A stretch of 29,914 nt of DNA, taken from positions 1-29,914 of the IMG/VR virus record IMGVR_UViG_3300020044_009798; one strand, written 5' to 3'. A program made the translations under genes and the position numbers. This document shows, piece after piece, positions 4,211 to 26,653 of this stretch. Source of the stretch: a virus. Its lineage: Duplodnaviria; Caudoviricetes. Below the pieces are notes generated by a model, which saw nothing but the letters and a program-made list of their open reading frames with translations, was not told the DNA's origin and did not search any database. How positions within the stretch are numbered: the stretch's first letter is position 1; every line of letters begins with the position of its first letter.

Positions 4211-4241
4211 CTTGACAAATAGAATAATCATCGTATATTTG
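4211..4241 (+). promoter_or_regulatory. Bacteroidota housekeeping-sigma promoter
   Basis: CTTG (4211-4214), 19-nt spacer, TATATTTG (4234-4241) matching TAnnTTTG. Confidence 0.75.
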
Positions 4242-4285
4242 TACTAAGCAATAACGCTAAAACACAAACACAAACAACCAACATC

Positions 4286-4609
4286 ATGAAACCAGTACAA
4301 AAATTAAACGGGCAATTTGGGGTTCTTTTACCATTAAAGTATAGTTGTTTAACATCGCCAAATCAAACTACTATACTTAAAAACATCCTAAACGACATGG
4401 GTGTTTTAGATGGGCGCAGTCAATACGATGCACGAGAAATATACAATACGCTTCCAAAAGAAAGCGGCGTGTCTTTCTTATTTTTAGAAGCTACGCCTGA
4501 AGTGCTAAAAAAGCATTTTAGCGGCTATGAAAAGATAAAAAATCGGCCATTAATGTGTGCTGATGGAGTAGAGCGAACAGAGGCCTACTATGAATCTGTA
4601 AAGTTTTAA
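4286..4609 (+). CDS. hypothetical protein, stand-alone transcription unit
   Basis: 107 aa with its own promoter and terminator. Confidence 0.75.
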   Translation: MKPVQKLNGQFGVLLPLKYSCLTSPNQTTILKNILNDMGVLDGRSQYDAREIYNTLPKESGVSFLFLEATPEVLKKHFSGYEKIKNRPLMCADGVERTEAYYESVKF

Positions 4610-4611
4610 CC

Positions 4612-4650
4612 AAAACCCCCAACACGCTCGTCATGTTGGGGGTTTTCTTT
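4612..4650 (+). terminator. intrinsic terminator
   Basis: Perfect 13-bp inverted repeat AAAACCCCCAACA / TGTTGGGGGTTTT followed by CTTT. Confidence 0.85.
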
Positions 4651-4674
4651 GCGCCGAATCTGCCGAACCATATC

Positions 4675-4711
4675 AAAAAAAATGCGCTCAGGACGGGAAT
4701 CCTGAGCGCAT
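4675..4711 (-). terminator. intrinsic terminator
   Basis: Stem TGCGCTCAGGA / TCCTGAGCGCA, 6-nt loop, T8 on the minus strand. Confidence 0.85.
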
Positions 4712-4777
4712 CTACCCCAAAAGGGTATATAATTTTTTTGATATTTTGTTTATTTAACCGTTTCACAACGGTAACGT
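4675..4777 (-). ncRNA. putative small structured RNA A
   Basis: Promoter TATCTTTG at 4789-4782, GUGA-loop hairpin 4757-4772, terminator 4683-4710 plus T8; homologous to 15412-15559. Confidence 0.6.
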
Positions 4778-4781
4778 ACTA

Positions 4782-4793
4782 CAAAGATACAAA
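4782..4793 (-). promoter_or_regulatory. Bacteroidota -7 promoter element
   Basis: TTTGTATCTTTG on the minus strand; no canonical -33 element at the expected spacing. Confidence 0.55.
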
Positions 4794-4804
4794 TATTTTA
4801 GATT

Positions 4805-4972
4805 CTACTGATTGATTTCGGTAGAATCTTTTTTATTTGTACGTATCAGCAGCAGCGTATCTACGCTATCGCTCGCAATAATCGTATCAATCGGCGTAAT
4901 TTCGGGCTGTGGTTCTACTGCATTATTGCAGCTAAAAGCGAAAAGGATAACTAAAGATGATAGTGTTTTCAT
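4805..4972 (-). CDS. small lipoprotein, candidate o-spanin (not in ORF track)
   Basis: 55 aa MKTLSSLVILFAFSC-NNAVEPQPEITP..., lipobox-like Cys15; ATGA overlap with the upstream membrane gene. Confidence 0.65.
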   Translation of the reverse strand: MKTLSSLVILFAFSCNNAVEPQPEITPIDTIIASDSVDTLLLIRTNKKDSTEINQ

Positions 4973-14470: not shown

Positions 14471-14489
14471 AATAAAAAAGTGTGTAACG

Positions 14490-14551
14490 CAAATTTACGC
14501 TACACACCACCCCGTTTTTTCGCAAATAATGCGAATTAATCCGTATATTTG
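14490..14551. promoter_or_regulatory. divergent promoter pair with a central palindrome
   Basis: TAAATTTG (minus, 14497-14490), TATATTTG (plus, 14544-14551), TTCGCA-aataa-TGCGAA at 14519-14535. Confidence 0.65.
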
Positions 14552-14571: not shown

Positions 14572-14814
14572 ATGGAAAACTTTGATTTTGGACAAAGATT
14601 GCGAATGATTGGATTTAAAGAAATGGAATCCTATTATGTAAAAGCAGTAGGAGAAAAACGTTTAATCGTTACCGTCTGCGAGGGCTGCCAAACTTTTCGG
14701 GTTAAGTATGGGAATAATGGGAGTTATATCAGTATAATAGACCCGAAAAAAAACCGAATACCGCAAACAGGTGAGGAGTTTAACGAATTATTTAAAATTT
14801 TAAAGGGGGTATAA
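14572..14814 (+). CDS. moron protein 1 (MENFDFG paralog)
   Basis: 80 aa, own promoter, antisense to the structural operon. Confidence 0.75.
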   Translation: MENFDFGQRLRMIGFKEMESYYVKAVGEKRLIVTVCEGCQTFRVKYGNNGSYISIIDPKKNRIPQTGEEFNELFKILKGV

Positions 14815-15056
14815 TGGAAAACTTTGATTTTGGGAAATGGCTAGAAGATAAAGGTTTTGTTTATTGCTTTTCTGCATACTACAAAACTATTAAAAGCACG
14901 CTTTATGCGCTATCGTTGTATGATAGCGATGTATTCGATATATCTTGGATGTGTGGAAACGATAAAGGGAATGCACTTAATTTTATTCCTATACCCAAAA
15001 GCGCAGCCGAAGCTGAAGCGATATTTGACAGATACCAAATACCGCTAAAACAATAA
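14814..15056 (+). CDS. moron protein 2 (MENFDFG paralog)
   Basis: 80 aa, TAATG-coupled; first 20 nt identical to the upstream gene. Confidence 0.75.
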   Translation: MENFDFGKWLEDKGFVYCFSAYYKTIKSTLYALSLYDSDVFDISWMCGNDKGNALNFIPIPKSAAEAEAIFDRYQIPLKQ

Positions 15057-15353
15057 GCCCGAAAACCAAACGGCATAATTTTTTCTAATCTCCCACAGTT
15101 GCCGCTCTGAAATCGGCACACGCTCCAATGTCCGATGTGATGCGAGGCCACAGTCCCCACGCTTACGGCGTGCCGATACCGTTCTTTCTATTTCCTTTTT
15201 GTATATCCAAATAGCCATAAACCGCAAAATCTGTTTTTCGGTAATAATGCCCAATTGCACCAAAGCACGAAGCAGGTCGAGCGGTTTAAGGTCTGCGAAT
15301 TTAGTCGCTATTAGGGTGCAAAAATCGGCGTTTAGTTTAGATTGTTTACTCAT
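15045..15353 (-). CDS. basic protein, possible HTH regulator
   Basis: 102 aa, C-terminal ISERQLWEIRK helix resembling an HTH recognition helix; lies upstream of head genes. Confidence 0.55.
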   Translation of the reverse strand: MSKQSKLNADFCTLIATKFADLKPLDLLRALVQLGIITEKQILRFMAIWIYKKEIERTVSARRKRGDCGLASHRTLERVPISERQLWEIRKNYAVWFSGLLF

Positions 15354-15393
15354 TATTTAAATTTAGCTTACTTTTTACTCATTATTTAAATTT
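15345..15393. repeat. 20-bp direct repeat, period 29
   Basis: TTTACTCATTATTTAAATTT at 15345-15364 and 15374-15393; core TTTACTCATT again at 15557-15566. Confidence 0.9.
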
Positions 15394-15395
15394 TG

Positions 15396-15407
15396 TTTGT
15401 ATATTTG
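15396..15407 (+). promoter_or_regulatory. Bacteroidota -7 promoter element
   Basis: TTTGTATATTTG; no canonical -33 element at the expected spacing. Confidence 0.55.
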
Positions 15408-15411
15408 TCTT

Positions 15412-15559
15412 ATGAAATGGTACTGTTGGGAAACAGCAAGAAAATATCAAAGATTTATATCAAAACCGATTTAGGATGCAAACCTAAATCAAACAAACTT
15501 AGAACGCCAATTCTAGGTTTATTTGCGCTCAGGACGGCAATCCTGAGCGCATTTTTTTT
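15412..15559 (+). ncRNA. putative small structured RNA B (four hairpins)
   Basis: Hairpins at 15423-15436, 15468-15490, 15495-15520 and 15524-15551 plus T8; homologous to 4675-4777. Confidence 0.6.
15524..15559 (+). terminator. intrinsic terminator
   Basis: TGCGCTCAGGA-cggcaa-TCCTGAGCGCA-T8. Confidence 0.85.
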
Positions 15560-15818
15560 ACTCATTTTCGTAACGGGTTTCGAAATACTCTAATACTTTA
15601 TTTACGCACTTATTGCAAGATAGATAGGCCTTTAATTTGGGCGCAAATCTCTCCTCTTTTGGCTGCCATTCGTGCGGCTCGACATATCGCAAATAGATAT
15701 TAGTAAGGGTACGAATATTCGATTGTCTTACCGTAGGGGGCAAATAGCCCCCTTTATTTATCAGCTCCTTGACCTGCGCTTCAATGTCGCTAGGTATTGG
15801 CATTTCGTATATTGTCAT
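15558..15818 (-). CDS. hypothetical protein with CxxC
   Basis: 86 aa, SCNKCV; ATGA overlap with the tape measure stop. Confidence 0.7.
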   Translation of the reverse strand: MTIYEMPIPSDIEAQVKELINKGGYLPPTVRQSNIRTLTNIYLRYVEPHEWQPKEERFAPKLKAYLSCNKCVNKVLEYFETRYENE

Positions 15819-26229: not shown

Positions 26230-26349
26230 TAAAAATAAGTGGATTTAAGTGGATTTTTTAAACCCTCGCAAATGTCCCCACTTGCGAGGTACTACTATTT
26301 TCTTATCCCTTTACAACATGGCATAACCTCCTAGTATGCCTTAGTTTTG

Positions 26350-26381
26350 CGAATATACGCCATTTTTGGGACAGATGCAAA
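26350..26381 (-). promoter_or_regulatory. promoter for terminase and late genes
   Basis: TTTG (26381-26378), 20-nt spacer, TATATTCG (26357-26350; one mismatch to TAnnTTTG). Confidence 0.6.
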
Positions 26382-26386
26382 TAAAA

Positions 26387-26653
26387 CTACTTAAACATAT
26401 CATTAAGCTCGGTTTCGTACTTTTTAAGATACTCCTTTGTGATAGTCAAGTCGCTAGATATACCGTCTTGCATTGCGTTTATTGCATCAGGAACGGACAT
26501 ACATAACCATTCAGCTATCGGCTTAAAAACAGCATCAGACATATCAAAACCGCTATGTTTTACAGTCTCTAAAGCCTTCTCATACATCGCAATTTCTTGC
26601 TTTGTCTTTTCGATTCTTTCGGCTAATTGGTTAGCCTTGTTTAGTTTTTCCAT
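26387..26653 (-). CDS. coiled-coil hypothetical protein
   Basis: Start MEKLNKANQ at 26653, just after the upstream stop. Confidence 0.65.
   Translation of the reverse strand: MEKLNKANQLAERIEKTKQEIAMYEKALETVKHSGFDMSDAVFKPIAEWLCMSVPDAINAMQDGISSDLTITKEYLKKYETELNDMFK

Follow-up and report, generated by a model that had tools for sequence, protein, structure and literature searches.

The boxB hairpin of phage lambda has a GNRA-like fold. In the lambda N-nut system a hairpin with a 4-5 nt GNRA-like loop stands beside a single-stranded box (PMC2724277, PMC3177189; here and below, papers are cited for the portions available to us), and leaders that combine a hairpin with a terminator have precedents in LoaP (PMC12691694) and in lambdoid PR'-tR'/StxS (PMC7547250). 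In the lambdoid PR'-6S-tR'/StxS arrangement a promoter, a short RNA and an intrinsic terminator precede the late operon, and StxS illustrates that a terminated leader RNA can take a trans role (PMC7547250). The dfn and mln leaders of Bacillus velezensis carry a small conserved hairpin upstream of a terminator in the 5' leader; this hairpin has a UNCG loop and binds LoaP, a chromosomal NusG paralog (PMC12691694). In Bacteroidota, the FopS sRNAs of Bacteroides (RF04319) are short multi-copy RNAs with their own promoter and terminator, with an unpaired 5' seed and no 5' hairpin, and they have also been reported in a phage (PMC11697453). Flavo-1 (RF01705) is a structured multi-copy RNA motif of Flavobacteriaceae.

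Here we describe a unit that occurs twice, as copies A and B, in the window, by which we mean the whole 29,914-nt stretch of phage DNA that was analysed, together with a family of leaders in Flavobacterium phages to which, judged by their sequences, both copies are very probably homologous. The phage leaders resemble the lambdoid arrangement in their order of parts, and for A and B we tentatively propose a role in trans; however, no Q-family protein was found, the conserved element is an RNA hairpin here and a DNA element there, and the unit in the window is detached from any operon and present twice. The leader family shares with the LoaP leaders a small hairpin upstream of a terminator, but its loop is G(U/G)GA(N), with UNCG in 0/17 sites, it belongs to phages, and the proteins scanned yielded no NusG paralog. 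It shares with N-nut a hairpin beside a single-stranded box, but the genes concerned are late rather than early, no N-like protein was found in the proteins scanned, and by eye the A-rich box is unlike the boxA consensus. Proteins resembling Q, N, NusG or ArpU were not detected among 25 proteins of phage FCL-2 (Pfam), 49 proteins of the related genome G406 (PHROG and Pfam) and 42 window proteins (Pfam, on a genome that is ~63% complete), scans that remote homologs would escape.

The units are multi-copy short RNAs like FopS but differ in having a 5' hairpin, and the FopS covariance model gave no match at E<=10, with a control that scored above its cut-off in 1/14 genomes; descent from a host Bacteroides sRNA (MasB, FopS) was set aside, as neither Rfam nor sequence scans supported it. 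The Flavo-1 model likewise matched nowhere in the window, G406 or FCL-2, and its two sub-threshold matches in phage FL-1 lie away from the leader. In the main-text portions consulted of a mostly open-access literature, we found no description of the leader or of a phage decoy of it (including PMC10994844, PMC11697453, PMC9723704, PMC8092290, PMC12197685, PMC12691694), and no account of late-gene timing in Bacteroidota phages (including PMC8092290). The RNA family is new, its architecture is of a known kind, and the orphan arrangement is unusual.

Two copies of one unit in a partial phage genome

The window is a partial tailed-phage genome in which Pfam identified terminase, portal, Clp protease, DnaB and amidase and PHROG gave a weak match to a tape measure protein; the named relatives of its DnaB are from Bacteroidota, at 30-33% identity. 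Using the -7 consensus of Bacteroidota promoters given in the accessible part of PMC9723704, we found four intergenic promoters of this type, at 4234, 14544, 15400 (copy B) and 4789 (copy A), and those at 4234 and 14544 precede accessory plus-strand genes. The 107-aa gene at 4234-4609 (+) has its own promoter, and relatives show a different gene start after 4264. At 14572-15056 (+), two 80-aa genes that share their first seven residues have their own promoter and are inserted against the late operon; no family match was found for them. At the contig end, 28526-28799 and 29641-29914 form a 274-nt inverted repeat (97%) that duplicates the end of dnaB and is probably a fold-back from assembly or amplification.

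The initial annotation had listed a series of elements for copy A, and their coordinates bear out that order from promoter to T8; copy B does carry the same ordered elements with an identical terminator stem and T8 (Table 1). Promoter, hairpin 1, A-rich box, TTATAT and terminator stem are common to both copies, the middle hairpins differ, and copy B is 45 nt longer; MAFFT misaligned the two at full length. The predicted RNAs measure ~102 nt for A (ends near 4776 and 4675) and ~147 nt for B (ends near 15413 and 15559).

Table 1. Coordinates of copies A and B and of the features around them in the window.
Feature	Position	Strand	Remark
Copy A, whole unit	4675-4793	-	all elements first described present in order
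Copy A, promoter: -7 box TAnnTTTG (4782-4789) and upstream TTTG	4782-4793	-	start inferred near 4776
Copy A, hairpin 1, 6 bp, GUGA loop	4757-4772	-	conserved hairpin of the leader family
Copy A, single-stranded A-rich box AAAATATCAAA	4737-4747	-	42 nt from -7 box
Copy A, TTATAT (4727-4732) and hairpin 2 (4713-4727)	4713-4732	-	TTATAT shared with copy B alone
Copy A, intrinsic terminator: 11-bp stem, 6-nt loop (4683-4710), U8 (4675-4682)	4675-4710	-	-21.1 kcal/mol
Separate convergent terminator, between ORF 4286-4609 (+) and late operon (-)	4612-4646		
Variable site in relatives around copy A	4647-4850		relatives' contigs
Copy B, whole unit	15396-15559	+	element order as in copy A
Copy B, promoter: -7 box (15400-15407) and upstream TTTG	15396-15407	+	
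Copy B, hairpin 1 (5 bp with GGGA loop), followed by the A-C mismatch of the phage leaders	15423-15436	+	
Copy B, A-rich box (15441-15451, 41 nt from -7 box) and TTATAT (15455-15460)	15441-15460	+	
Two extra hairpins specific to copy B	15468-15517	+	
Copy B, terminator, stem identical to that of copy A, U8	15524-15559	+	
12-nt direct repeats flanking copy B	left 15372-15383, right 15555-15566		
20-nt tandem duplication near copy B	15345 and 15374		

Both copies fold better than shuffled sequences (z = -5.97 for A and -5.78 for B; 0/200 shuffles as good), with most of the folding energy coming from the terminator. The compensatory change between C-G and T-A in the first stem and the GNRA loops of both copies, which had been taken as signs of selection on structure, are present, and the stretch thought to be displayed single-stranded has a mean unpaired probability of 0.94 in A and 0.70 in B. 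A pattern of promoter, hairpin and box, derived from the whole family with A and B included, matched the window twice and 1000 shuffles not once; the 11-mer AAAATATCAAA is a weak signal alone, with 2 exact copies in the window and 6 matches at <=1 mismatch vs 2.7 expected. A short structured RNA under selection is supported, and its transcription, as modelled from these elements, is probable; among the sequencing runs listed as carrying matching sequence, none is of RNA. The units also lie outside Rfam, as had been supposed: cmscan against Rfam 15 gave no match at either copy, the CRISPR models included, and one weak match elsewhere in the window. Copy A is roughly symmetric over 4732-4797, where the A-rich box on the other strand resembles the promoter in 9/13 letters and a model (R1) weakly matches the opposite strand; this symmetry is absent from copy B.

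Viral sequences scanned for the A-rich box with TTATAT and the terminator gave 0 loci. The A-rich box with TTATATAC gave 78, none with the architecture by eye, and the terminator stem 4; these, like 14 loci from genome contigs and 2 from metagenomes, were rejected as chance matches. Neither copy searched by blastn against phages, nor copy A against plasmids, had a match over 31% of the query. The core pattern occurred in 0/400 Bacteroidota genomes and the terminator pattern in 1/301 (G186); that genome holds seven identical, REP-like perfect palindromes (L100-L106) whose stem is the same as that of the A and B terminator. Covariance model searches of host chromosomes gave matches in 0/121, 0/150 and 0/150 genomes, a weak test with at most 35-41 candidates scored per genome, and the one match in a further search of 150 genomes at the same depth was rejected on inspection.

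A leader family before late operons of Flavobacterium phages

The hairpin and A-rich box together were found at 18 viral loci, two of which (one sequence) also had the promoter, the stem and a terminator and carried the unit directly before a head-maturation protease gene. Among distinct regions upstream of this protease the unit was present in 8/9, including those of the cultured phages FL-1 and FCL-2, and a wider pattern gave 20 viral loci, of which all nine that bear a promoter precede the same head protease, four of them new. In total we count 15 leaders in 12 genomes of Ficleduovirus-like Flavobacterium phages, three of which have a second copy before the portal operon. G406, G407 and FL-1 carry the second leader before a 97-aa gene that itself precedes portal, and FCL-2 has no second leader. 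In FL-1 this leader is separated from the 97-aa gene by another ORF, of 236 aa (L148:1622-2332), which resembles a GIY-YIG homing endonuclease.

The leader occupies ~87 nt between the promoter and the start codon of the head-protease operon and is unannotated; the start codon of the structural operon lies 17-26 nt behind the U-run in 7/8 cases measured. All 79 blastn matches to one leader were Flavobacterium phages, although most of these records are near-identical relatives of FCL-2 and count as about two lineages, and 0/40 of the matches listed (79 in all) had an annotated feature under the match. Rfam 15 models gave no match at the leader in eight leader loci, with three weak matches elsewhere. 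Weak model matches at L154, L155, L172:1596 and L176 were dropped, being without hairpin, promoter or terminator, and L148 (19.3 bits) was kept in the family, as all parts are present. The Cellulophaga phage phiSM, whose protease is 46% identical, has no leader unit. Its promoter is present all the same, as it is at L141 and at the FCL-2 portal-operon site, where the leader is likewise missing; in some relatives the leader is therefore dispensable for late expression. Other genes seen in these genomes include FCL-2 gp61, conserved in the three ficleduovirus-like genomes compared and without a Pfam match, and, in G406, a histone-like Hc1 gene (L159:10216-10380) and an acyl carrier protein gene (L158:13229-13471).

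The covariance-model check proposed at the outset was run with a model from phage leaders and finds copies B and A. Built from eight leaders without A and B, this model (R2) had just two matches in 86 kb, B at 37 bits (E = 9e-4) and A at 26.6 bits (E = 0.05). The common promoter box contributes to these scores, the E-values are rough, and one of the eight training leaders (L134) was itself found by an A/B-derived pattern. The core is short and AT-rich, and a host site without a clear hairpin or terminator scored 34 bits with model R3. Both copies have the -7 box followed by a hairpin with a G(U/G)GA(N) loop and intact inner 4 pairs, and an A-rich box followed by an intrinsic terminator; neither has the start codon of a structural operon behind the U-run. 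The spacing, tight among the leaders, is off in the copies: the -7 box lies 23 nt (A) and 28 nt (B) from the loop vs 28-33, and 107 and 152 nt from the U-run vs 87-92. The terminator of A and B is unrelated in sequence to those of the leaders and lies 15-65 nt further away. Homologs that conserve only the terminator had been named as a warning sign; what the homologs keep is instead the 5' hairpin and the A-rich box. Exactly these two parts are retained in A and B, with the box at an almost constant 41-42 nt from the promoter and the rest diverged.

The inner 4 pairs of the hairpin are intact in 17/17 sites, and pairs 1 and 4 each show a single compensatory change. At pair 5 the bases pair in 15/17 sites and take five different forms. 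Pair 6 is mismatched (A-C or A-A) in 15/17, and pair 7 is paired in 16/17, ten of them as U-G. After the fifth pair, copy B has the A-C mismatch of the leaders; copy A has a Watson-Crick pair in its place and has lost the outer stem. The GNRA loop seen in both copies does not hold family-wide, where GNRA tetraloops make up only 7/17, 5-nt loops 9/17 and UUGA 1/17. The covariation score is 0.419 vs 0.19 in shuffles (0/500 as high) and above all slid controls, and the model alignment has 4 pairs with two-sided change; with an alignment fitted to the structure and related sequences, this is supportive rather than proof. In alignment A8 three rows stand one column out of register, which lowers its pair counts; the 17-site counts are anchored on the loop. 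From the U-G pairs and the kept mismatch we infer that an RNA helix fits better than a DNA palindrome. Neither a conserved kissing interaction between two loops nor a conserved antiterminator fold was seen by eye in the 17 sites.

As regards the origin of the copies, the initial annotation proposed a small-RNA family; that the RNA is structured and selected stands, but its origin as an sRNA does not, since all 15 homologous sites examined elsewhere are cis leaders before a structural (late) operon. Because the homologs keep the hairpin and box and all 15 are cis leaders, we read A and B, on this comparison of sequences, as orphaned late-gene leaders rather than as a family born as sRNAs. The window proteins gave no tblastn match in FCL-2, G404, G406 or G407, and the GC content of the window is 41.7% vs 30-38% in the leader loci, which lends no support to a host common to the window phage and the FCL-2-type loci.

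Surroundings of the two copies

Relatives at ~90% identity (two runs of one study) are without copy A: their contigs (runs X1 and X4) join 4646 to 4851 with 35 other letters between, and one low-depth X1 contig (20-letter side) joins 4667 to 4795, close to copy A's own ends. On these sequences copy A is accessory. The terminator at 4612-4646 is retained in the relatives without copy A, which is thus not needed to end the late operon. Another X1 contig (one contig, depth 2.4) matches 4670-4747 with 14 differences and one gap; its flanks are different, and there may thus be a third copy of the unit elsewhere. Searches with the terminase (1 distant contig) and the capsid (0 viral loci) turned up no locus from a close relative of the window phage; the capsid search found one distant prophage, in 401 and in 151 genomes, and the models found no unit in the 35 kb of it examined.

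No sense gene was found downstream of copy A, behind which lie a second terminator at ~30 nt and only a 21-codon frame, and no flanking repeat >6 nt was found. Copy B likewise has no sense gene downstream that we could find. It is oriented antisense to two neighbouring late-strand genes and lies in the gap after ORF 15558-15818 stops and before ORF 15045-15353 starts. It looks like an insertion, as judged from the flanking 12-nt direct repeat, which includes the stop of the gene upstream and is similar to the start of the gene downstream. The 102-aa protein adjoining copy B (15045-15353, -) has a homolog at 95% identity and no Pfam or PHROG match; its nearest named Atlas cluster is the Mor activator (0.76, a lead only), and we regard it as a candidate late regulator.

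A separate leader (26230-26390, -) belongs to the terminase small subunit gene and has TTTG, 20 nt, a variant of the -7 box, a hairpin, an A-rich stretch and an 11-bp terminator-like hairpin with a GGGA loop. Its layout is as in the leader family, yet the covariance models did not match it; it is possibly the window phage's own late attenuator. A 13-bp hairpin with T6 (14471-14510, -) lies 3 nt before the Clp protease start, and by eye the loop region of this hairpin is similar to the leader terminators of the Flavobacterium phages. Models R2 and R3 match neither the terminase nor the Clp leader, although terminator-like hairpins are present in both.

Possible roles of the orphaned copies

We reasoned that the leader of the Flavobacterium phages is, by analogy with the systems described above, probably an attenuator whose hairpin and A-rich box recruit a factor, because a terminator with a U-rich run before the capsid operon must be read through and because three loci (L134, L136, L137) have a further terminator-like hairpin, recognised by eye, just upstream of the promoter. 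In these phages a host sigma promoter would make an ~85-nt RNA that stops at the leader terminator, and a factor reading the hairpin and the A-rich box would allow read-through into the head-protease or portal operon. In the window phage the same core, joined to a different terminator and with no sense gene behind it, would yield free RNAs of ~102 and 147 nt that display the hairpin and the A-rich box and titrate the factor; this would act on co-infecting phages or set a threshold for the phage's own late switch.

Our preferred, if tentative, model regards A and B as orphaned, accessory leader RNAs which may act in trans as decoys for a hairpin-binding factor. A decoy would be the simplest trans role because A and B keep the parts such a factor would read and have no gene behind them. 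The protein sponge first proposed thus survives in the model as the best trans role, but its parent unit is a cis late-gene leader. More doubtful is the specific version in which free RNA copies of the late switch of rival phages would sequester the antiterminator and keep these rivals from expressing their capsid genes. Of the other trans roles put forward, an antitoxin decoy finds no footing in the window, where neither tandem repeats nor a toxin neighbour were found and the type III antitoxin or pseudo-antitoxin hallmark of a tandem repeat array beside a toxin gene is missing. For an RNA anti-CRISPR or tracrRNA mimic, the comparison covered the CRISPR models of Rfam, which matched neither copy.

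It is rather unlikely, in our judgement, that A and B act in cis, whether as stranded leaders of lost accessory genes or as switches from which, once antiterminated, antisense RNA would extend into the tail genes in the case of B and towards the lysis genes in that of A. The cis position of all 15 homologous sites elsewhere speaks for such a role, as do the accessory plus-strand genes near both copies with the same promoter type (4234, 14544), the antisense orientation of copy B into the tail operon and the possible 11-nt pairing of the copy A box with the U-run and the adjoining downstream bases. However, this pairing is private to A, the other 16 sites offering 4-8 nt, a second terminator and only the 21-codon frame lie behind A, and relics would be unlikely to retain compensatory changes as well as, at two separate loci, the same 11-bp terminator.

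Base-pairing sRNAs of the StxS or FopS kind, whose A-rich strand would serve as a seed for U-rich mRNA of host or phage, are an unlikely alternative to the decoy, even in the variant in which the leader may function as an sRNA throughout the family and merely be located at strong promoters. The RNAs are predicted to be short and terminated and to expose a conserved stretch, related phages differ in whether they have the leader, and StxS, a late-leader by-product turned trans sRNA, offers a precedent (PMC7547250). Against this, the longest perfect complements in the window, FCL-2, G406 and G407 are 12-14 nt, AT-rich and not common to A and B (a comparison with no null model); FopS did not match; and the A-rich box is degenerate in 4/15 leaders with the hairpin nearly invariant, which fits protein binding better. 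The antisense regulator of the initial annotation likewise found no supported target among the complements in these four sequences.

That the units are a MITE-like mobile cassette of promoter and terminator, selfish or neutral, or resemble the phage leader by convergence and without common function, seems to us quite improbable. The clean presence or absence of A, the direct repeats at B and the modest model scores would fit such an element, but there are only two copies, no terminal inverted repeat is listed, a direct repeat (12 nt) stands at B only with none >6 nt flanking A, and the core and terminator patterns are as good as missing from the Bacteroidota genomes scanned (0/400 and 1/301); the leaders' A-C mismatch kept in B argues against convergence. 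That the units encode small peptides is very unlikely, since the ATG-started frames of 20 and 58 codons near the 5' end of B have no match in A (first ATG at RNA position 70, 7 codons) and no peptide is common to both.

The conserved, unannotated leader in cultured phages (FL-1, FCL-2 and relatives) makes late-gene timing directly testable. If A and B are decoys, they would represent RNA-only interference of one phage with another, a role that would be new, and would give a handle for finding the antiterminator of a candidate hairpin-based late antitermination in Bacteroidota phages.
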